Positions 37,005 through 48,253 of a stretch of 64,000 nucleotides of DNA are shown here, piece by piece. Under the pieces are notes generated by a model. That model saw nothing but the letters and a program-made list of their open reading frames with translations, ran no database searches and was not told the DNA's origin. The DNA is from an uncultured bacterium (GTDB lineage Bacteria > Acidobacteriota > HRBIN11 > JAKEFK01): NCBI GenBank assembly GCA_963777505.1, contig CAVZQN010000004.1, positions 1,472,001-1,536,000 on the forward strand, given 5' to 3'. Every line of letters begins with the position of its first letter. Position 1 is the first letter of the stretch. The translations under genes and the position numbers were made by a program.

Positions 37005-37475
37005 ATGAATCGTTTCACGTTCTTTTTGTTGTGTCTTTTTCTTTCTGTAACAGCTTCTGTATTCGGAATTGAATCTGGTATCAACGTTTATGGCTTTTCG
37101 TATCATCCGGAACGAACCGATTCACAAGGAAATGGATTTCAAGAATGGAATCCAGGTGTGGGTTATCATGCAACATTACGAGAAACACATCACTCCATTC
37201 TTTTTGCGGATGCGGGAGTATTTTTAAATTCGCTGAGCAGTCCCACTTTGTTTTCCGCGGCGGGGGCTGAGTTAAAAATTCATAACGGAATAAGCGCTGG
37301 ACTATTTGGCGCTCTTATTTACAGCCGTGCTTACAATTTCGGAAAGCCTATCGTGGCTCCGCTCCCATCTTTATCGTTTCGGCACGGTCAATTCAGATTT
37401 AATGCGACATACTTTCCAAAGTACAAGCAGAATGAAAATGCAGCATTCGGCTTTTCGTTCACCTGGTTTCCATAA
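37005..37475 (+). CDS. Small outer-membrane beta-barrel, PagP-like
   Basis: Signal peptide, SYH, EWNPGVG, FLNS, alternating beta strands, aromatic C-terminus. Confidence 0.55.
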   Translation: MNRFTFFLLCLFLSVTASVFGIESGINVYGFSYHPERTDSQGNGFQEWNPGVGYHATLRETHHSILFADAGVFLNSLSSPTLFSAAGAELKIHNGISAGLFGALIYSRAYNFGKPIVAPLPSLSFRHGQFRFNATYFPKYKQNENAAFGFSFTWFP

Positions 37476-37496
37476 CACTACTCTGCTGTCCAAGGA

Positions 37497-38315
37497 GTGA
37501 AGATGAAGTTCTATGTGAGTCTCATAGCGTTCCTATTCATCCATTCGTCTGCTTTTGCGGAAGTTTCTTCATCCGTTTCGATGTTTCAATATCACCCTGA
37601 ACGGATCAAGGTAGGTACCGTGTATCACTATACAAAATCAAATTTGGATGGAACAAAGCCGGCAACAGTTTCGATATACATCAAAGCAGCTGATACTCTT
37701 GAAGTCTATAAAGCCGAAGAGGAAGTCATCGATGCGGCTCACATCATCGCAAAAATGGACTGGACATCATTTTCAGCGTCTGAGTTAGATTCAGGTCATC
37801 TACTTAAAGATGGAACTCGCAAGCCTGTAGCAACTCTGACACTTTCAAAGGCAGACAATACGCTTCAAGTCCGGATCAAGGATCAAAATGGCAGCACAGC
37901 AATCAATCATTATCCGGTACACATCTACAACTTTGATTTCATCAGCTTCAATTACATACTCCGCCATCTAAAGGATCCAACAAAAACTTTTGAGATTGGG
38001 ATCGCTGATCCGATTTTTCAAGGCGAAGGATTGATCAAATACAAAGGGAAAGTAAAAATTGAATTCGCCGGCGAAGCTCCGTGTCATCAAACAACATGCC
38101 GCAAATACAGAATTACCGGCGAACCATTTGGTGACAAAGAAGGTTTCATGTGGGTAAATAAAAAGGAAGGCTATGCTGAGAACATAGAAGTCCCCGTTCC
38201 GGACAATCCTGATTGGAACAGTTTTAAGTTTGAATTGAAAAAGGTTGAGCAAATGACGCCGGCACAATGGGAGACTTATAAGAAAAACAACATTGGCCGA
38301 AAACCGTATCCTTAG
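37497..38315 (+). CDS. Secreted hypothetical protein
   Basis: Signal peptide ending AFA; beta-rich; AAGGAG RBS. Confidence 0.7.
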   Translation: MKMKFYVSLIAFLFIHSSAFAEVSSSVSMFQYHPERIKVGTVYHYTKSNLDGTKPATVSIYIKAADTLEVYKAEEEVIDAAHIIAKMDWTSFSASELDSGHLLKDGTRKPVATLTLSKADNTLQVRIKDQNGSTAINHYPVHIYNFDFISFNYILRHLKDPTKTFEIGIADPIFQGEGLIKYKGKVKIEFAGEAPCHQTTCRKYRITGEPFGDKEGFMWVNKKEGYAENIEVPVPDNPDWNSFKFELKKVEQMTPAQWETYKKNNIGRKPYP

Positions 38316-38326
38316 TGTCTTTGCGG

Positions 38327-39671
38327 TTAAAACAAAAATAGATACGCAAGGAGCATTGCGGCAGCGGCACCAACGAGTGTGTTCATAAAGTTAATAATTT
38401 CATTATCAACAATCTTCATTTGTTCCAACGTTGCGCCAAGATAACTTTCAACAGTCGTCCCGATAAATCCAGCAACAACACAGATCCATCCGATCGTAAT
38501 ATTAATGGAGCCTAGCAAGATTCCGATACCGCATAGCACTGCGGATGCAACGATTCCTGCGAAGGTTCCTTCAAGCGAAACTGCACCTTCAGTTCCCACC
38601 GGAACGGGACGCAAAGTTGTAATCAGGATTGGATGTTTGCCAAGCACCTGACCAATTTCGCTGCTGACCGTATCTGCAGCTGCAGTAGCGAACGCTCCGA
38701 AAAATCCAGCAATAAAAATCAGTCCCTTATTTTCGGGAGAGAGCATCGCCAGAATCGCCAGGAATGCTCCCACAGAACAATTTGCCACTGCATTTTTCCA
38801 GCCTCTCGCGCCGCCTTTCTCTTGTGCAACTCCCATCGCTTTTTTGCGGGAGTATCCAAACTTGGTTGATGCTGATCCAAGAAAAAAGAACGTGAACAGA
38901 ATTATGAAAAGTTGATAACCACCAAATGTGTAAATTGTTGTTCCGATTAGTAACCCGCTAGCAAAGCCTGAAAAATTTACCATTCGTGCCGCGAAGGATG
39001 CGCCTGCCAAAGCTAGATTGATTGCAAAGCCCCACATGAAATTATGCAAAATTTGATCTTGATTTATGAAAACCAAGCTCGGATCGATTTGATTCAAGGC
39101 CAGCATAAAGAAGCCGGCGGAAATAGGAACTGTGAGATTATCGTTTAATCCGGAAGGAACTGTTTCAATCAGCGCTGCAAGTAATGTTGCAAGTACAGGG
39201 AATCATGATTCCATACCAAATCAAAGGTTCCGGGATCGTCTTCCTGATCCAGAATGTAAAGAACACAGCAGCTGCGCTGCCGAAAATAAAAAAAGCAATC
39301 GAACCTGCATAACTCCGCTCTGTGTTCCAGGGAATTTTTGCCGTTCCATACTTCTTTCCAACAAGCGATGCCATGCCGTCACCCCATGCCATGATTCCCC
39401 AGGCAGCGCCAACAATGTAAAGGTGATGTGGAAGTAATAAAATCAGAACTAAAACCGAAAAGGGATATAAAAGGATTCCAATTGGATAGCCACGCTGATG
39501 ATCATCATCTCGATATAAATGTTTTCCCCCAACTCGCGGCAAAATCAGAAAATTAAAGATGAATGCACAAAGAGCAATCAGGGCGCTCTGCCACCAGTTC
39601 AACCATCGTAAAAGAAATGCAAAGCCACTGGATCCAATGTGAACAGCCTTCCTCTTCAGTTCCGAATTCAT
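38327..39671 (-). CDS. Phytol/farnesol/dolichol-kinase-like domain fused to DUF92 (TMEM19/VTE6-like), split by a 1-nt insertion at 39198-39200
   Basis: N-half: ELKRKAVH, WGDGMASLVGKKYG, RSYAGS; after removing one base: IETVPSGLNDNLTVP; C-half: GGARGWKNAVAN, ADTVSSEIG, GTEGAVSLEGT, ESYLGA. Corrected ORF is 447 aa. Confidence 0.8.
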
Positions 39672-39705
39672 GGAATTATTTTCACCACAAAGACGCAAAG
39701 ATTAC

Positions 39706-40695
39706 TTAATTTTTTACGTAGCCTTCGTTCTTGAGCCAGCCGATCATTTCGATTAAGCCATCTTTTAAAGATGTGATTGAGTAACCCAATTCATTAATTG
39801 CACGACTACTGTCATAAGCCCAGCTCAGTTTATAAATTTCGACAACTTCGTGAGTCAAGAGTGAAGGCTCGCGTCCGAATATTTTCGCAAGCAAATATTC
39901 TCCGTAACCTGCCATCTTGGCCATGCTGAATGGCATGTTCATCGCTGGCGGTTTTTTCCCCGTTACTTCGTGCACAGTCTTGTAAAAGGATTCACCTGTA
40001 TGATTCTCGCCCCCAAGAATATAACGATTTGAAGGCGGAGTGTTTTCGATGACTTTAACAAAACCATTGACAACATCCTGAACAAAAACGTAAGACCATG
40101 CTTTGAGCGGCAATCCAAAAGGCATCTTTCCATTCAAGAAAGGAATGAGATTTTTTGCAACAATATTTCCATACGTTAAATTTCCGGGTCCATAAATAAC
40201 GGCTGGATACAATATGTATAACGGAAATCCTTCTTGTTGAAGTTTCCTCGCTTTTTGATCGGCCAGATATTTTGTTCGCTCATAATCATTGTGCAAAACA
40301 TTGCTGCGGCGCGCATCATCTTCTTTCAACAGTGTTCCATTGGAAGGTCCAAGCGCGATAAATGAAGATGCGTAAATGAATTTCTGGATGCCTGCGTCGG
40401 CTGACATACGGATCGCCTTTTCAGTTGCATCCACATTGACACGGTCGAATTGCGCGCTGTCACGTGCCCACATCTTTACAAGTGCGGCAATATGAACAAA
40501 TACATCTTGATCTCGCAGTGCTGACTGATACGTTACAGGGGATTCAATTTCGCCTTTGACAATCTTCACACCTTCGGGAAAGGAAAGTTTTTCCGGTGAA
40601 CGAACAAGTGTAGTAATTGCATGTCCGCGTTGGTGAAGTGTTTTTAGTAGTTCGTTGCCAAGGAAGCCGGTAGCGCCCGTCATGAAAATATTCAT
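39706..40695 (-). CDS. Extended SDR, farnesol dehydrogenase (FLDH)/HpnA-like
   Basis: TGATGFLG, HIAALVKMW, IYASSFIALG, YERTK, YPAVIYGPG.LT, RYILGGEN. Confidence 0.8.
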   Translation of the reverse strand: MNIFMTGATGFLGNELLKTLHQRGHAITTLVRSPEKLSFPEGVKIVKGEIESPVTYQSALRDQDVFVHIAALVKMWARDSAQFDRVNVDATEKAIRMSADAGIQKFIYASSFIALGPSNGTLLKEDDARRSNVLHNDYERTKYLADQKARKLQQEGFPLYILYPAVIYGPGNLTYGNIVAKNLIPFLNGKMPFGLPLKAWSYVFVQDVVNGFVKVIENTPPSNRYILGGENHTGESFYKTVHEVTGKKPPAMNMPFSMAKMAGYGEYLLAKIFGREPSLLTHEVVEIYKLSWAYDSSRAINELGYSITSLKDGLIEMIGWLKNEGYVKN

Positions 40696-41663
40696 GAAAC
40701 GGAAACTCCTTGAACTTTCATTTGCCAGTATTCAAATAAATCCTTCAAAGTGGTCCGCAAATCATACATGGGCCTCCAACCTGTTTGAGTTGTCAGTTTT
40801 TCGTGGCTTCCCAGGATGAGCGGCATGTCTACCGGACGAAATAAAGCGGAGTCTATTTCTACTTGAAAAGGTTTTCCGGAAAGGTCAATCAAGAGATGGA
40901 GAACTTCTTCAATTGATGGCGCTTTTCCTGAACAGACATTGTAAGGCTCACCAGGTTCACCGCTGTTTAGGATCGTGCTATAGGCTCTCACGACATCACG
41001 GACATCAGTGAAATCGCGGCGTGCTGATAGGTTTCCAACATGAATGCGATGAGGAGGTGGCTGGCCTGTCGCTATTGCGATCTGATAGGCAAAAGCGGAA
41101 CAAACAAAAGTCTCTTTTTGCCTCGGACCTGTGTGATTAAAAGCCCTGCAAATGTATACAGGTAGTTTTTCCGCACGCGCATACTGCATACCAAGAATTT
41201 CCTGAGCGATTTTACTTACCGCATAGGGCGAAGCGGGGGAGAGTGGAAAATCTTCTTTAATCGGTTGCTTTTCAGTGGGAACAATACCGTAAGCTTCGGC
41301 GGATCCTACCAACAGAACTTTAGGAAAGGCAGTCAATGAACGGCATGCTTCAAGCAAGTTAAAAGAACCAATAAAATTTGTCTCCATCGTCGCTCTACGA
41401 TGCGTCCACGATTCATGCACATGGGCAAGCCCTGCAAGATGATAAACAACTTCAGGTTTCACCAGCCTTAGAATCTTCTTTAAACGTGAAGCCTTAAGAA
41501 TATCTTCGCGATAAATCTGAATGCGCGGATGATCTTCAAGATGTTGAACTGCATGAGTAGGATGGATGATTCCTACAATCTGCACATCCGGATCTTTCAT
41601 CAGAAGATCGACTAGGTGGCTGCCAACAAAACCAGCAAGACCCGTGATAACAACTGTTTTCAT
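40692..41663 (-). CDS. GDP-sugar SDR (Gmd/Rmd-like)
   Basis: TGLAGFVG, SPYAVSK, RAFNHTGP, GNLSARRDFTDVRD. Confidence 0.85.
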   Translation of the reverse strand: MKTVVITGLAGFVGSHLVDLLMKDPDVQIVGIIHPTHAVQHLEDHPRIQIYREDILKASRLKKILRLVKPEVVYHLAGLAHVHESWTHRRATMETNFIGSFNLLEACRSLTAFPKVLLVGSAEAYGIVPTEKQPIKEDFPLSPASPYAVSKIAQEILGMQYARAEKLPVYICRAFNHTGPRQKETFVCSAFAYQIAIATGQPPPHRIHVGNLSARRDFTDVRDVVRAYSTILNSGEPGEPYNVCSGKAPSIEEVLHLLIDLSGKPFQVEIDSALFRPVDMPLILGSHEKLTTQTGWRPMYDLRTTLKDLFEYWQMKVQGVSVS

Positions 41664-41747: not shown

Positions 41748-42710
41748 TTAGCGGATTTGTTCGCGCCAGTAATCTACGATATCACCAAGAGTCTTTTTGA
41801 AAGGAATTTGTGGTTTCCAACCAGTTGCTTTGTGAAACTTTGAAAAATCGCCTTTCAAAAGTGGAACATCGGAAGGACGCAAACGTGCAGGATCCTGTTT
41901 CACTTCGATTTGTAATCCTGTATGTCCGATTACCATACTGAGTAGATCGCGAATCGAAATCGCGTCTCCTGTGCAAATGTTGTAGACCTCACCTGGTTCG
42001 CATTTTTCCAGCGAAAGCCAATAGGCCTTCACCATGTCACGAACATCCGTAAAGTCGCGCTCTGCATCCAGATTCCCAACATAGATCACCGGCGGACGTT
42101 TCTTTCTCTCAATTTCAACAGCCTGTTTACTGAAGTTGGAGCAAACAAAAACTTCGCCGCGCCGAGGTCCTGTATGGTTAAAGCCTCGCGTACGAACTGC
42201 TTTAATTCCGTAAGACATGAAATACTGATATGCCAGATAGTCCTGTCCGACTTTGCTGACTGCATAAGGGCTCAGTGGCCGCAAGGGATTGTTTTCAGTA
42301 ATCGGAACTTCATCGGGATGCACCATTCCATATTCTTCACTCGAACACGCAATCTGCACCCAGCAATCCAGAAGTTTCGATTCGCGCAATGCCTCAAAAA
42401 TGTTTAATTGTCCAATGATATTTGTGCTTAACGATTCCGCAGGAGCGTTCCATGAACTTGGCACAAAACTTTGGGCTGCAAGATGGAAAATTTTGTCAGG
42501 CCGCACATCGGCAATCAGTGCTTTTACAGAAGATGCATCTACGAGATTGCATTCCATCACATTTACTTTATCCAGTAGATGTTCGATGTTTTCCATTCTG
42601 CTGCGCCATCTTCGGATCCCAAAAATTTCGACTCCGGGATGTTCTCGTAAGATGTATTCAGCGAGATGGCTGCCGGCAAAGCCGGTAATTCCTGTTATTA
42701 AGACTCTCAA
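41748..42710 (-). CDS. GDP-mannose 4,6-dehydratase / Rmd-like SDR
   Basis: ITGITGFAG, HLAAQSFV, SSEEYG, SPYAVSK, FNHTGPRRG. Confidence 0.88.
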   Translation of the reverse strand: MRVLITGITGFAGSHLAEYILREHPGVEIFGIRRWRSRMENIEHLLDKVNVMECNLVDASSVKALIADVRPDKIFHLAAQSFVPSSWNAPAESLSTNIIGQLNIFEALRESKLLDCWVQIACSSEEYGMVHPDEVPITENNPLRPLSPYAVSKVGQDYLAYQYFMSYGIKAVRTRGFNHTGPRRGEVFVCSNFSKQAVEIERKKRPPVIYVGNLDAERDFTDVRDMVKAYWLSLEKCEPGEVYNICTGDAISIRDLLSMVIGHTGLQIEVKQDPARLRPSDVPLLKGDFSKFHKATGWKPQIPFKKTLGDIVDYWREQIR

Positions 42711-42751: not shown

Positions 42752-43636
42752 CTATGATCGCAATTCGTATTCGTTGGCTTTCAGGTATGCAATGTATTCC
42801 GCTGTACTCTGTTGCCAGGTACGCGGTGTCTGACCTGTGGTTCGAATGTAATGCGAACAGCTCAAAACCGAGTAATTCGGCCGCTTTGCCGGCGTAGGCA
42901 AACTGTCATTTTTAACAGGTTCTACAGAATTGTTCAAGCCATACAATCTCAAAATTGTTTCAGCTTGCTCATGACGGCTGCATTCACCGGTATTGGAGAA
43001 GTGGTAAGTGCCTGTGCATTTGAGGGATAGAAGCTTCAGAACGGCAGCCGCAACATCGCCGGCGTAAGTCGGTGCGCCTATTTGATCTATCGGCGCTTGA
43101 ACTTTTCCCCCGGCAAAAGCTCGTTTCAGTATCTTTTTGGCGAAGTTGTCACCATTTCTGCCGAAAATCCAGGAAGTTCGTATGATCAGAAACGAACCGC
43201 CGCCAGCAAGGATTTGTTTTTCGCCTTCCAGCTTCGTGACTCCGTAATAATTGACTGGATTTGGTGGATGATTTTCCACGTATGGAGTGCTGTTACTGCC
43301 TTCAAAAATATAATCGGTGGAAAAATGAACCAGAAGTGAAGAATATTTTTTGCAAAGCGCAGAAAGGTGGCCGGGTGCTTGCGCATTTACAACGAAAGCG
43401 GTTTCCCGAAATTTTTCACAATCATCAACACGAGTGAATGCGGCTGCATTCAATACAAATTCGGGTTTATGTCTTAAGAATACTTTTTCAACTTCAAGAT
43501 AATCCGTAATATCGAGTTCTTGATGCTGAAATTCAGCAAGTTGCGCTCCGGAACAAGCGCGTGATAAGGCACTTCCAATCATGCCGCCGGCGCCCAGCAG
43601 CAAAATACGACGCCCTAGCGTGGGCGAATCTGCCAT
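42752..43636 (-). CDS. rfbD: dTDP-4-dehydrorhamnose reductase
   Basis: GAGGMIG, AAFTRVD, STDYIF, YGVTKLEGE, DQIGAPT. Confidence 0.92.
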   Translation of the reverse strand: MADSPTLGRRILLLGAGGMIGSALSRACSGAQLAEFQHQELDITDYLEVEKVFLRHKPEFVLNAAAFTRVDDCEKFRETAFVVNAQAPGHLSALCKKYSSLLVHFSTDYIFEGSNSTPYVENHPPNPVNYYGVTKLEGEKQILAGGGSFLIIRTSWIFGRNGDNFAKKILKRAFAGGKVQAPIDQIGAPTYAGDVAAAVLKLLSLKCTGTYHFSNTGECSRHEQAETILRLYGLNNSVEPVKNDSLPTPAKRPNYSVLSCSHYIRTTGQTPRTWQQSTAEYIAYLKANEYELRS

Positions 43637-44649
43637 GCTCCCTCCGTAATGGTTCCATAATGTTTCGTGTAAAAGTCGTTAAAATCCTTTTGCCGTTCGC
43701 GAATTCTCTTCCACCAACCTTCGTTTGCTGCATACCAGTCAACTGTTGATTTCAATCCATTTTCGAGCGACCAATCAGGCTTCCATCCAAGGGCGCGAAG
43801 CCGCGAACTATCCAGTGAATACCTGCGATCATGTCCCGGACGATCCGCTACATGTTGAATCAAAGAATCCGGCTTTCCAAGTAAGTTCAGGATTTCTGTT
43901 GTAATTTCCATGTTGGTGCATTCCTGATTTGCACTGACGTTATAAACTTCACCGGCCATTCCATGTTCCAACAAGAATAACAATGCGGAACAATGATCGC
44001 GGACATATAGCCAATCGCGAACTTGTTTTCCATCTCCATAAACGGGAACGTTCATGTTTTGAATCGCGTTCGTTATGAAAAGCGGAATTAACTTTTCAGG
44101 ATATTGATTTGGACCATAGTTATTGCAAGATCGTGTGATAACAACAGGCAAGTCATAAGTCTTAAAGTAAGAATATGCGAGCCGGTCCGCTCCCGCTTTA
44201 CTCGCAGAATAGGGATTAGCGGGCATCAAGTTATCATCTTCGGTAAATGAGCCCTGTTCACGGCTGCCGTAGACTTCATCCGTAGAAATGTGAATGAACT
44301 TTTTAATGTTGTATTTGCGTGCAGCTTCAAGCAAAACATACGTGCCATAAACATCCGTTCGGATAAATGCTTCGGCGCCATAGATGGATCGATCTACAAA
44401 TGATTCAGCTGCAAAATGAACGACAACGTCGCATGCCGACATAGCATGATCTACAGCTTTTGCATCGCAGATGTCACCCTGAATGAAGCTATAACGCGAA
44501 TCAGATTTAAGATCTTCAAGGTTTTCGAGATTGCCTGCGTACGTCAGCAAATCAAGATTTGTAACTTCGGCGGTTTTATCAGCTTCAAGGAGAGCATGCA
44601 CAAAATGGCTGCCAATGAACCCCGCCCCGCCTGTAACCAGATATTTCAT
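43615..44649 (-). CDS. rfbB: dTDP-glucose 4,6-dehydratase
   Basis: TGGAGFIG, LTYAGN, AAESFVDRSI, STDEVYG, YSASK, DRPGHDRRY. Confidence 0.95.
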   Translation of the reverse strand: MKYLVTGGAGFIGSHFVHALLEADKTAEVTNLDLLTYAGNLENLEDLKSDSRYSFIQGDICDAKAVDHAMSACDVVVHFAAESFVDRSIYGAEAFIRTDVYGTYVLLEAARKYNIKKFIHISTDEVYGSREQGSFTEDDNLMPANPYSASKAGADRLAYSYFKTYDLPVVITRSCNNYGPNQYPEKLIPLFITNAIQNMNVPVYGDGKQVRDWLYVRDHCSALLFLLEHGMAGEVYNVSANQECTNMEITTEILNLLGKPDSLIQHVADRPGHDRRYSLDSSRLRALGWKPDWSLENGLKSTVDWYAANEGWWKRIRERQKDFNDFYTKHYGTITEGAWQIRPR

Positions 44650-44733
44650 AAAATTAAAAATGAAAAATCAAAAATAAAAAATGAGGAACTCTTCTCTCTG
44701 TTTTTGATCTTTTATTTTTCATTTTTAATTTTA
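44649..44733. repeat. Inverted A/T-rich heptamer-repeat element
   Basis: TAAAATTAAAAATGAAAAAT.. on the left and its reverse complement on the right; related element at 51483-51555. Confidence 0.8.
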
Positions 44734-45804
44734 GTAAATATCAATCAGACTGTTATCTCCCACCAGAAATCGATAGACCTGCGGTGGACGATCGCTTCGT
44801 GCAATGCGCGTATTCATGCCTATCAGACTATCCTCTACACGCCGGTTGAGATGCAAGAGCTTGCTGCCACGAAGAACGATGCTATGTTGAAGTTCACTTC
44901 CACGAATCTCACATTGATCCTGAATCGAAGTAAATGGACCTACGAATGAATTTTCAATAACTGTATTTTCTCCAACGATTGCCGGACCTCGAATAGTACT
45001 TCCAATAATTTTTGCGCCCTTTCCGATTTCAACACGGCCATCAATCCGTGAAGCTGAATCAACTTCACCGTGAATTCCGCGTTGCAATGTTTCCAGGATC
45101 AATCGATTCGCTTCAAGCATATCGTCCAGCTTTCCTGTATCTTTCCACCATCCATCTACAATGTGCGGCTCAACACGATAACCTTTATCGATCAAATATT
45201 GAATTGCATCTGTAATTTCAAGTTCGCCGCGCCATGAAGGTTTCAAAATTTTCTCAGTTTCAAAAATATGATGATCAAACATGTACACACCGACAAGCGC
45301 CCAATTGCTACGTGGAGCTTTCGGTTTTTCTTCCAAACGGATAACGCGATTTTCCTCTAATTCCGCAACACCAAATTGTTCAGGATTCGGAACTGAAGCA
45401 AGCAAGATCTGAGAATTCGGCTTCGACTTCCGAAAATCATCGATTAATGATTCAATTCCATTTTTAAGAAGGTTATCACCGAGATACATAACAAAAGGAG
45501 ATTCTTTTAAGAATTTCTTTGCTGTAAAAACTGCATGTGCCAGACCGAGAGGTTCAGGTTGATCGATGTATGTGATCTTTGCACCCCAGCGGCTGCCATC
45601 ACCGACGGCTTCAACAACTTCATCTTTCGTTTCACCAACAATAATTCCGATATCGCGAATTCCTGCATTTGTTAACGCTTCAATCCCATAAAAAAGGATC
45701 GGTTTATTCGCCACTGGCATGAGTTGTTTTGCGCGGGTGTAAGTGAGAGGGCGGAGTCTTGTGCCTTTTCCTCCGCTTAAAATGAGTCCTTTCAGTTCCA
45801 TCAT
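44731..45804 (-). CDS. rfbA: Glucose-1-phosphate thymidylyltransferase, long form
   Basis: GGKGTRLRPLT..AKQL, WWKDTG, C-terminal hexapeptide repeats. Confidence 0.93.
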   Translation of the reverse strand: MMELKGLILSGGKGTRLRPLTYTRAKQLMPVANKPILFYGIEALTNAGIRDIGIIVGETKDEVVEAVGDGSRWGAKITYIDQPEPLGLAHAVFTAKKFLKESPFVMYLGDNLLKNGIESLIDDFRKSKPNSQILLASVPNPEQFGVAELEENRVIRLEEKPKAPRSNWALVGVYMFDHHIFETEKILKPSWRGELEITDAIQYLIDKGYRVEPHIVDGWWKDTGKLDDMLEANRLILETLQRGIHGEVDSASRIDGRVEIGKGAKIIGSTIRGPAIVGENTVIENSFVGPFTSIQDQCEIRGSELQHSIVLRGSKLLHLNRRVEDSLIGMNTRIARSDRPPQVYRFLVGDNSLIDIY

Positions 45805-45810
45805 CAGGCG

Positions 45811-48165
45811 CTAGAATCGGCGCGGAGGGGTGCCACTGCGGAAATCAACGAGACTCCCAAGATTCGGAAGGCTAACTGTAAACGTAAATTGGTTCTCATC
45901 GCGTCGGAAAGAATCATCCCCAAAATCAAATCGTCTCCACTCCATGCCTACGGTAAAACAATCATCATTGTAAAGGAAGCCGGCTGAATTGCGATACACT
46001 TTCTTCTCCAAGAAATCGTAATCAAACTCACCCGTAAATACAAATCTGTTCTTTAGAATGCCAAAGCCCCCATTTAAACGAACCTGGTGAGCATCCGCGC
46101 GGGTTCGGATTCCTTCGATACGAACTCGATTCGAATAGTTGTAGCTGACATTTGCATACCAACGTTCCTGATCCCTCAATGTCGAGCCAACATTGATATT
46201 TGTGATCTGTTTTTCGTAAACATCGTAGTCAATTCCAAAATCGATGTTGTAATTAACGCTTGGGTTTATCCGTAAATCTGAGCTAATGGGTGACATGGGT
46301 CGAAGCTCTGGAAACCTCTCTACATCAAAACGATCCGATTGCATCGAATAACTTTGTGATAGCCGCCATGAAATTAATTCCCATGGAGATTCAATCTCTT
46401 CTTCATAGGGTGTTGGATTGTAATATTGATATTCGTCTGGGTCATATTCTTCTGGTTCTTTGATTGGACGTTTTGAATAAAGTAAGTTTGTGATCCCAAA
46501 TGTAACTACATTCAAACCAAAAATATCATCGACATCATCAATTCTCAGTATGTTTGCAATTTCTTCGATATCCTGAATGTAACGATACGTAACCTGAGGC
46601 TCAATCGCGTGCTTCCATTTCTTGGAATAGGCCATATTTGGAGTGTCAAAGATTTTCGAAAAATTTGGACCGCGTAAATCTAATGCCATGTCCATATATT
46701 TTCGCGTCACGGCATCGTCTAGAATAACAGGAACATCACGTGATCCCGTCGCTTCTTGCTGTTGAGCGCTATAGTGCGTTACGCGATAGCCGAACCCTGG
46801 TGTAAGTGTCAGCCAGGATAGATATGTCATCGGAAATGAAATACCTGGAAACATATCGTAACGCTGATACTTGGAACTTAACTCGGAGCTGCCAAGTAGA
46901 TCGCTTCTACCAAGGTAGCTTGCCGATCCAGTGAAAGTCCAGAATAGACCAGTCGGCCCGATTTCCTGACTGCGTGCTTGAAATTCGAGTTCAGGCAAAT
47001 GAAAAAGTTGAACTTCGCGGGATCTTGAAAATTGCGTTTCAGAAAAGTCACCTAACAGGTTCATACTGTAATAAGACCAGTTACGCGTAAGAAATCCTTG
47101 TGCGCGCTGCTGTCTGCGCGCGGACCCCGCAAAACTGTTGTCTGCATCTTGAATGTATTCGAAACTGCTGAATACATCTGCCACACCAGCTACACGAAAA
47201 TCTTTTGGAAGATCATGTTTTACGTCTGCGTTTAATGTCCACTGTGGCCCTAATTCCTGATCGTCGGCATAATAGTATCTGGTAGAGCCTCCCGATTTTT
47301 CTCCTGTTGCATAACGGTATTCCGCGCCGCCAGCCCAGCCGCGAATTGCCCAATGATCGACCCAATATGTGCTATCCATCGAACGGCCCATCGCCCAGAA
47401 AAAAGAACCACCAACCCAGAATCCTTTACTGTCGTTGGGTCCAAATCCTGGAAACAGAAAACCAGTCGCTCGGTCACGTTTAATCGGCCAGATCATGTAA
47501 GGTGAATAAAAAATCGGAACTGTCTTTGCCTTTAAAGTAAAGTTCTTAAAGTGAGCATACTCGTTGAACGTTAAGCGTGTTGTGGTTGTTTTTAATTGCC
47601 AGTGCGGGAGAATCTGCGAACATTCGGTAAAGACCCCATCGTAAATCTTGTATTCATCTTCACCTAGCTTATCTAGCTTGGTGCCCCAGAAGAAAAATTG
47701 GGGAGGAACATAGCCAAAAACGTTATACATGGTTCCAGTCTGGTCCTCCATGTTCATTTCGAGCTTTTCACCCGTAATCCGTTGTCCTTCTTGATCCAAC
47801 ACTACATTTCCTGTAGCAATCAATTGCTTCGTAGCGGTGTCATACTCGGCTCGATCGGATTGAAGGCGGACCCCTTTGTACGCGATGTCGACGTAGCCTT
47901 CTAAGATGAAATAATTCGGCCTTACTTCATCCTGTGTTTGTGATGAAATGTGGAGTTGTTCTGTAAAATCAGATTTGGGAAGGGTTCCATAGCTCCCAAG
48001 TTCTTCACGGTTAGGATCGATGCTGTTTGTACCCGTGCCTTGAGATTCAGTTGGATAGACTCCGCCTGTCTCTTCCTCATCTTCTTCATCGCTTTGGGAG
48101 AAAACAAGATTGAAAAACAGGAGAGAAAATATTGTTATAAGAAGTGCCACCCGTGCAAGCTTCAT
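45811..48165 (-). CDS. lptD: LPS-assembly protein LptD
   Basis: Signal peptide from ATG 48165, OstA-like N-domain, FTEC...PHW, RATGFLFP, long beta-barrel with KHAIEP and NDDCF. Confidence 0.85.
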   Translation of the reverse strand: MKLARVALLITIFSLLFFNLVFSQSDEEDEEETGGVYPTESQGTGTNSIDPNREELGSYGTLPKSDFTEQLHISSQTQDEVRPNYFILEGYVDIAYKGVRLQSDRAEYDTATKQLIATGNVVLDQEGQRITGEKLEMNMEDQTGTMYNVFGYVPPQFFFWGTKLDKLGEDEYKIYDGVFTECSQILPHWQLKTTTTRLTFNEYAHFKNFTLKAKTVPIFYSPYMIWPIKRDRATGFLFPGFGPNDSKGFWVGGSFFWAMGRSMDSTYWVDHWAIRGWAGGAEYRYATGEKSGGSTRYYYADDQELGPQWTLNADVKHDLPKDFRVAGVADVFSSFEYIQDADNSFAGSARRQQRAQGFLTRNWSYYSMNLLGDFSETQFSRSREVQLFHLPELEFQARSQEIGPTGLFWTFTGSASYLGRSDLLGSSELSSKYQRYDMFPGISFPMTYLSWLTLTPGFGYRVTHYSAQQQEATGSRDVPVILDDAVTRKYMDMALDLRGPNFSKIFDTPNMAYSKKWKHAIEPQVTYRYIQDIEEIANILRIDDVDDIFGLNVVTFGITNLLYSKRPIKEPEEYDPDEYQYYNPTPYEEEIESPWELISWRLSQSYSMQSDRFDVERFPELRPMSPISSDLRINPSVNYNIDFGIDYDVYEKQITNINVGSTLRDQERWYANVSYNYSNRVRIEGIRTRADAHQVRLNGGFGILKNRFVFTGEFDYDFLEKKVYRNSAGFLYNDDCFTVGMEWRRFDFGDDSFRRDENQFTFTVSLPNLGSLVDFRSGTPPRRF

Positions 48166-48253
48166 GTCAAACAATTCACACCTTACCACGTGAGCTATTC
48201 TTTTTCAATGAAATCTCAGCGGCTCAGCGCTGGAAATTCAAGTACAATTTCAG

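Follow-up and report, generated by a model that had tools for sequence, protein, structure and literature searches.

Within a 64,000-nucleotide (nt) stretch of contig CAVZQN010000004.1 from an uncultured acidobacterium (assembly GCA_963777505.1), which is referred to here in its full length as the window, two adjacent open reading frames (ORFs) on the minus strand belong to a single gene, which encodes a two-domain membrane enzyme and is interrupted here by one surplus base. The enzyme combines a domain of the superfamily that holds Sec59/VTE5-type kinases with a DUF92 (VTE6-like) domain, and its gene directly follows that of an extended short-chain dehydrogenase/reductase (SDR) related to plant farnesol dehydrogenase (FLDH). 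A similar SDR gene precedes the fused gene at most related loci, and a UbiA prenyltransferase gene commonly follows it. These family assignments and the conserved gene order make plausible a route in which the fused kinase and the FLDH-type SDR would convert prenal or prenol to prenyl phosphate and prenyl diphosphate for transfer by UbiA, a reading from sequence comparison to which we give slightly better than even chances. The features at the center of this analysis are as follows.

39706 to 40695, minus strand: extended SDR of the FLDH/HpnA-like family, 329 amino acids (aa), with GATGFLG at residues 7-13 and YERTK at residues 138-142.
39165 to 39698, minus strand: 177-aa ORF of the ORF list, with its N-terminal start at a TTG at 39698.
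39165 to 39671, minus strand: 5' piece of the putative fused kinase gene, likely ATG at 39671, encoding most of the Sec59/VTE5-like domain of the cytidine triphosphate (CTP)-transferase superfamily.
39197 to 39200, minus strand: site of the surplus base (CCCT on the coding strand) that splits the gene.
38327 to 39202, minus strand: 3' piece of the same gene, encoding the end of the kinase-like domain (E..P.GL.DNLTVP) and the DUF92 (VTE6-like) domain, with its frame open from 39202.
38327 to 39106, minus strand: 259-aa ORF of the ORF list, contained in the 3' piece.

The likely start codon of the kinase gene lies approximately 34 nt past the SDR stop codon. The 177-aa ORF ends in a wrong-frame tail and a TGA at 39165-39167, and the frame of the 259-aa ORF is free of stop codons upstream as far as 39202, so that skipping one base anywhere in 39168-39202 joins the two. 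Reading the four-letter step TGTA (39194-39197) as V yields a stop-free 447-aa protein with the junction ...GIMIPVLATLLAALIETVPSGLNDNLTVP.... A preliminary description of this locus, made by a model from the sequence, had reported three ORFs, which are indeed present on the minus strand, and had proposed that removing one base at 39198-39200 restores a 447-aa protein. The read-through gives this same protein, whether the T at 39197 or a C at 39198-39200 is dropped, and the motifs quoted in that description are all found in the translations. In a DNA-level alignment the window carries one base more than four aligned relatives, exactly at ATT CCC TGT. A single 151-nt metagenome contig over the break (depth 2, five mismatches in 140 nt) reads ATT CCC GTA CTT, so that the extra letter is possibly the T at 39197 instead of a C at 39198-39200.

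Comparison with homologous proteins and genomes indicates that the fusion is the normal state of this gene; no interruption is seen in any full-length relative recovered. With the read-through protein as query, 2591 proteins matched at E<=0.001; the best matches were 445-470 aa in length, all contained PF01940 and, where named, were 'DUF92' or 'TIGR00297 family' proteins from metagenome-assembled genomes (MAGs) of Acidobacteriota. Two substitutions separate the intact 447-aa protein P0002 from the read-through. Matches were obtained in 27 of 41 related genomes, a set that includes the window's own genome (G000) and the unpublished G035, with a single uninterrupted full-length or nearly full-length match in 23 and partial or DUF92-only matches in three. 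The gene is split only in G000, as residues 1-162 and 156-447.

We modestly favor an assembly error over a real lesion as the source of the frameshift. The alternative, which we place somewhat below an even chance, is that the frameshift is genuine and that this lineage recently inactivated the kinase after the UbiA gene moved away, in which case the locus would be a young pseudogene. Consistent with such a history, the assembly as given has the split gene and its own gene call comprises only 168 aa (P0122, a truncated call on the window's own 1.9-Mb contig), the UbiA gene is absent at all three family-level loci that have downstream sequence, and the surplus base, going by the 151-nt contig, lies outside any long homopolymer. 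A recent loss is opposed by the presence of only one lesion in the kinase gene, the 97% and 99% identity of its two pieces to intact P0002, the intact copies in five of six same-family genomes, and the intact UbiA ortholog of this genome. Among the sequencing runs searched, none represents the organism itself; the largest share of sampled words in any run was 0.11, and no RNA run was among those listed. Programmed frameshifting is unlikely because the extra base is absent from every relative compared. A separate observation concerns L129:10054-11560, where a Ser/Thr kinase domain ends after 148 of 263 model positions and same-frame and other-frame ORFs directly follow; this may be another broken gene of this assembly.

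The C-terminal half of the read-through protein is assigned to the DUF92 (VTE6) family, and prenyl-phosphate kinase activity is predicted for it from this membership. PF01940 matches over model positions 2-251 of 251 with 197.7 bits (E 2.8e-58; cut-off 27.5), which bears out the C-terminal DUF92 fusion of the preliminary description, and the same model is matched by all 26 aligned relatives. The 259-aa piece, which was scanned alone and not as part of the read-through, reaches 194 bits on TIGR00297, under the equivalog cut-off of 205.85. Comparison of the DUF92 and CdsA alignments with hhalign gave 83.7%. For the DUF92 half of the structural model (window 38327-39050; model mcfb9c41ad427, residues 242-447), CarS and CdsA were the top family-coherent fold matches, with Z 7.9 for CarS (5guf) and 6.9 for CdsA (4q2e) in an exhaustive structural comparison. 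With hhalign the N- and C-terminal halves showed no detectable similarity to each other (0.8%).

For the N-terminal half, the 177-aa ORF has no Pfam or NCBIfam match and the corresponding part of the read-through has no Pfam match. We aligned 44 N-terminal domains from related loci (alignment A2) and compared them using hhalign with a CdsA alignment of 24 sequences, drawn from this genome and 23 relatives. The two align at 94.4% (E 9e-8, 163 columns), with GDGxAxxxG / KSxAG of the N-terminal domain placed on the CdsA catalytic segment GDxxAYxxG / KTxEG; values no higher than 2.8% were obtained with the reversed CdsA alignment, with 15 column shuffles and with an unrelated UbiA alignment as controls. 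Residues D98, E169 and D177 are invariant across the 44 sequences. AlphaFold modeled the whole protein with a confidence (pLDDT) of 87.4 and the N-terminal domain with one of 93.5, and the latter model matches 4q2e with Z 6.3 (root-mean-square deviation 6.2 over 164 residues) and 5guf with Z 6.3 (2.7 over 103 residues). These rank second and third of 48,161 chains, and a TRIC channel ties with them at Z 6.5. Foldseek searches of the PDB with the whole model and the N-terminal model returned nothing at E<=0.001, and profile searches of PDB sequences with alignments A1 and A2 gave no relevant match. In the ESM Atlas the N-terminal part matched unnamed clusters and one with 16% PF01148 at a score of 0.91, which serves as a lead only. 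Stand-alone short relatives of the domain are scarce (12 found, mostly fragments), and one relative of the domain, P0126, bears the source name 'dolichol kinase'. The profile comparison supports placement of the N-terminal half in the CdsA/Sec59 cytidylyltransferase superfamily, and thereby the CTP-transferase/kinase type of domain described previously; a kinase rather than a cytidylyltransferase role is putative. The chemistry of CdsA and CarS is transfer of cytidine monophosphate, whereas phosphate transfer would be expected of the fusion.

The SDR is a full-length relative of the plant FLDH family, nearer to FLDH than to true HpnA or to sugar epimerases. Arabidopsis FLDH (At4g33360) was represented in the comparisons by the plant proteins P0175, P0320, P0357 and P0391, whose names are automatic annotations. 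An exhaustive search of 1.84 billion representatives with the SDR gave 346 matches at E<=1e-30, with the Morus protein P0175 at rank 42 of the representatives (38% identity, 205.8 bits); relatives of P0175 at 71-75% identity include proteins of Lupinus, Helianthus and Bertholletia with the source name farnesol dehydrogenase (NAD+). By BLASTP the SDR aligns with P0175 at 35% identity and 215 bits (query 2-327 on 3-340), and with P0263, which passes the HpnA cut-off, at 29% identity and 159 bits. The preliminary description had stated that this SDR follows plant FLDH along its length, and the alignment agrees; shared with the plant family are GxxGxxG, YE(R)(T/S)K, GPG(N/K)(L/V)T, GEN and the C-terminal LGY..SLK(D/E)GL.E...WLK. 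The top NCBIfam model for the SDR is HpnA (TIGR03466), which matches end-to-end yet gives only 191.7 bits against a cut-off of 367.65. Of the 150 representatives listed, 123 were scanned against this cut-off (27 short or multi-domain rows were left out); four passed, and plant proteins remained below it at 238-250 bits. The best match among solved structures is 3wj7 (E 7.6e-40), which is named 'putative oxidoreductase', and the top ESM Atlas cluster is from Streptophyta (score 0.99), again a lead only.

Phylogenetic placement was evaluated with a quick maximum-likelihood tree of 86 rows picked from best hits (LG+G4 without a mixture model, short search), comprising the window SDR, 28 other SDRs adjoining fusions, 45 chosen representatives, four true HpnA proteins, five plant proteins, the genome's paralog and two GMD-like outgroups. 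All 29 module SDRs fall into a single clade (SH-aLRT 95), and the 59-row group that contains them (support 92, not starred) also contains the plant clade (support 100), with HpnA outside this group and the GMD-like sugar SDRs of the operon as a distant outgroup. The preliminary description had called for a phylogeny with FLDH and HpnA, and in this tree the SDR is placed closer to the FLDH family than to true HpnA and at a large distance from the sugar-type members of its own operon. The SDR is not the direct sister of the plant clade, whose nearest row is the bacterial representative P0164. The paralog is a second HpnA-like SDR, 344 aa in length with 222 bits on TIGR03466, in the region L130:5869-11315 (G000:C4:1677870-1683314). 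Adjoining it in this region is a 1471-aa protein with fatty-acyl-reductase (NAD_binding_4), AMP-binding, PP-binding and acyltransferase domains, which resembles the myxobacterial ether-lipid enzyme ElbD.

To evaluate conservation of the gene neighborhood, we scanned one genome per species and obtained 79 loci, nearly all from Acidobacteriota MAGs (Thermoanaerobaculia, Holophagales, Vicinamibacteria and Polarisedimenticolia), with a few from Omnitrophota or unclassified genomes. By tblastn with proteins of the window, 64 of these loci have an SDR ortholog as the immediate upstream neighbor of the fused gene (59 complete and five cut by a contig end). The pairing, whose occurrence in related genomes the preliminary description had proposed to check, is thereby conserved; in two loci the upstream sequence was too short. 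The first downstream ORF could be scanned at 70 loci, nine offering none, and in 48 it encodes a UbiA prenyltransferase, often overlapping the stop codon of the fusion. All 48 UbiA proteins match one place in the window's own genome, C1:198707-199615, with identities up to 61%. The gene at this place is intact, encodes 333 aa and stands beside unrelated genes, and its best NCBIfam matches, all sub-threshold, are PRK12884 prenyltransferase, ChlG, BchG, DGGGP synthase and homogentisate phytyltransferase. The linkage of kinase and UbiA genes has been lost in this family. The ortholog (L129:6627-7628; G000:C1:198626-199627) is situated between a MoaC/MoCF gene and small ORFs of unknown nature.

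Upstream of the SDR, whose start overlaps the stop of the preceding gene by 4 nt, the same strand carries genes for an outer-membrane protein and for nucleotide-sugar metabolism. The counts given below are out of the 61 loci whose upstream sequence amounts to 4 kb or more.

40692 to 41663, minus strand: SDR of the GDP-mannose-dehydratase family ('GMD-like A'), found upstream in 40 of 61 loci.
41748 to 42710, minus strand: GDP-mannose 4,6-dehydratase-like SDR ('GMD-like B'), 35 of 61 loci.
42752 to 43636, minus strand: RmlD-family dTDP-4-dehydrorhamnose reductase, 34 of 61 loci.
43615 to 44649, minus strand: RmlB, dTDP-glucose 4,6-dehydratase (TIGR01181, 452 bits; cut-off of 365 passed).
44731 to 45804, minus strand: RmlA, glucose-1-phosphate thymidylyltransferase, long form (TIGR01208, 491 bits; cut-off of 320 passed).
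45811 to 48189, minus strand: LptD-family outer-membrane protein, first gene of the same-strand run.

The run therefore reads LptD, RmlA, RmlB, RmlD, two GMD-family SDRs, the FLDH-like SDR and the fusion, which is its last gene, as the preliminary description had placed it at the end of an lptD-rml-gmd operon; convergent genes lie beyond. Two of these, at 37005-38315 on the plus strand, have weak sub-threshold Pfam matches to PagP (E 8.8e-5) and DUF3108 (E 5.9e-4), and both look like exported envelope proteins.

In the route proposed here, a free isoprenoid alcohol would first be phosphorylated, with CTP as the donor, by the Sec59/VTE5-type domain at the N-terminus and would then receive its second phosphate from the DUF92/VTE6-type domain at the C-terminus. 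The co-transcribed FLDH-family SDR, which would be NAD(P)-dependent, would interconvert the matching prenal and prenol. In most Acidobacteriota the product would pass to the ChlG/DGGGPS/HPT-like UbiA protein encoded immediately downstream, and in this genome the receiving UbiA would be supplied by the intact gene on contig C1. A chain length of C15-C20 appears the most probable for the substrate.

Several results weigh against this route. PF01148 does not match the N-terminal domain of the window even at E<=10 and is matched by only one of 26 relatives (E 9.5e-4); the protein P0123 also matches it, at E 0.0096. The model search of the corrected fusion suggested in the preliminary description matched its C-terminal half, through PF01940, and not its N-terminal half. 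Z values of the fold matches to CdsA and CarS are no higher than 6.3-7.9, which helical bundles commonly reach. Identity of 35% would leave the substrate of the SDR unfixed, and plant FLDH works in the oxidizing direction, so that an enzyme acting likewise would drain the prenol pool and not feed it. A GMD-like or RmlD-type gene abuts the fusion in eight of the 79 loci with no FLDH-like SDR between them (L005, L025, L041, L042, L048, L061, L070 and L077), from which it follows that the fusion can be linked with sugar genes independently of this SDR. Five further loci have no SDR by the threshold used, among them L004 with a fragmented SDR; four loci have neither this SDR nor a sugar-type gene next to the fusion. 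In the window's own genome the fused kinase gene is broken and its UbiA partner unlinked. Finally, the position of the cluster within a 6-deoxyhexose/LptD operon fits a carrier-lipid role equally well.

Such a role, which we consider unlikely overall, would have the Sec59-like domain phosphorylate a long polyprenol (C55-type), as dolichol kinase does, and the SDR act on polyprenol or polyprenal, providing a glycosyl carrier for envelope glycans made from the rhamnose/6-deoxyhexose precursors encoded upstream. The LptD-RmlA-RmlB-RmlD-GMD-GMD context and the presence of RmlD and GMD-like genes upstream in 34-40 of 61 loci are in keeping with this, as are the Sec59-like nature of the N-terminal domain and the finding, in an archaeal study, that uppS is the only conserved neighbor of archaeal DUF92 genes (PMC5898192). 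A carrier requires a monophosphate, however, which would leave the second kinase domain with no obvious role, and the protein encoded most often downstream is a UbiA that most resembles enzymes using C20 substrates. In addition, no glycosyltransferase was seen in the cluster, and at least eight loci have the SDR and the fusion with no sugar gene within approximately 5 kb upstream.

It is more improbable still that the SDR is a further ketoreductase or epimerase acting on nucleotide sugars in the 6-deoxyhexose pathway and that its adjacency to the kinase reflects operon packing. The Pfam label of the SDR is Epimerase (PF01370), three to four other sugar-type extended SDRs precede it, and a sugar-type SDR directly abuts the fusion in the eight loci listed above. 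In the family ranking, however, HpnA (1.5e-56) is followed by SdmB (1e-36) and by thioester reductase and OleD (about 1e-20), with sugar enzymes at 1e-12 or weaker. The tree places the SDR within the FLDH/HpnA-like family and the GMD-like proteins of its own operon far outside, the single clade of module SDRs accompanies the fusion even where sugar genes are lacking, and the other HpnA-like paralog of this genome is found beside the lipid-type 1471-aa megaenzyme.

Beyond the prenol-to-prenyl-diphosphate route itself, a broader and rather doubtful possibility is that four linked activities across the Acidobacteriota, namely an FLDH-type oxidoreductase, a CTP-dependent prenol kinase, a prenyl-phosphate kinase and a ChlG/DGGGPS-like prenyltransferase, constitute the first prenol salvage and activation pathway of non-phototrophic bacteria. 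Under this tentative extension the genes, often co-transcribed with those for 6-deoxyhexoses, would serve the synthesis of an envelope lipid based on a C15-C20 isoprenoid, perhaps of the ether or glycolipid kind. If true, it would provide tractable bacterial models for the farnesol and geranylgeraniol kinases that are still unidentified in animals.

The combination of domains has a precedent. Makarova, Galperin and Koonin (2015) described two-domain archaeal arCOG02245 proteins, such as Mbar_A3310 of Methanosarcina barkeri, and their paper reports an N-terminal Sec59/COG0170-like domain (HHpred 99.85%) for proteins of this type, ties COG1836 to PF01148 (HHpred 97.6%), and predicts 'a step requiring kinase activity' in isoprenoid metabolism (PMC5898192). 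The hhalign results for the window agree with these published HHpred results for archaeal homologs (PMC5898192). From the same text, the archaeal proteins have the architecture of the window fusion, a Sec59/COG0170-like N-terminus and a COG1836/PF01940 C-terminus, a likeness that rests on the published description and not on direct sequence comparison. The archaeal genes have uppS as their conserved neighbor there, whereas the bacterial fusion is found with an FLDH-like SDR and UbiA. According to the preliminary description the module was not known to have been described in bacteria; the Sec59-like and DUF92 fusion as such was already reported for archaea in 2015 (PMC5898192). In our literature search, no listed paper connected kinases of prenol, phytol or farnesol with Acidobacteria.

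Plant and cyanobacterial phytol salvage, as presented in two reviews, uses the same two families in the same reaction order, VTE5 or FOLK followed by VTE6 (PMC9782597, PMC13022625), and a UbiA-type phytyl/geranylgeranyl transferase-like enzyme is the likely consumer there, as in the acidobacterial module. Unlike plant salvage, both putative kinases are in one chain here, in non-phototrophs with no chlorophyll source. Unlike VTE5, the N-terminal domain is too diverged for PF01148, and its likeness is assigned at the superfamily level. COG1836 was linked to phytol-phosphate metabolism by comparative genomics in 2011 (PMC3223725). The same reviews, from 2022 and 2026, give prenol and prenyl-phosphate kinases as genetically identified only in plants, cyanobacteria and Plasmodium, and note that these activities were observed decades ago in bacteria and animals (PMC9782597, PMC13022625).

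To this background the window adds the placement of the SDR in the FLDH family, the link to a 6-deoxyhexose operon, and a lineage with an unlinked UbiA gene and a one-base break in the kinase gene. A phylum-wide bacterial cluster with both kinase types in one chain, flanked by an FLDH relative and a prenyltransferase, would offer an expressible system in which the range of substrates, the nucleotide used and the function of DUF92 could be worked out. The module also points, in bacteria abundant in soils and sediments, to an isoprenoid lipid that is not yet known. The value of the window alone is lower, since its copy is broken, UbiA is elsewhere in the genome and the architecture has been published for archaea.

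The genome as a whole, estimated at 95.9% completeness, contains one separate bona fide CdsA, four UbiA-family genes and three polyprenyl synthases. Neither a squalene-hopene cyclase (PF13243) nor a squalene/phytoene synthase (PF00494) was found in it, and the suggestion made in the preliminary description that the module recycles hopanoid precursors is not supported for this reason. A geranylgeranyl-reductase-family gene at G000:C1:158466-159323 scores 192 bits against an NCBIfam cut-off of 158.8 and, in this non-phototroph, lies approximately 40 kb from the UbiA gene.

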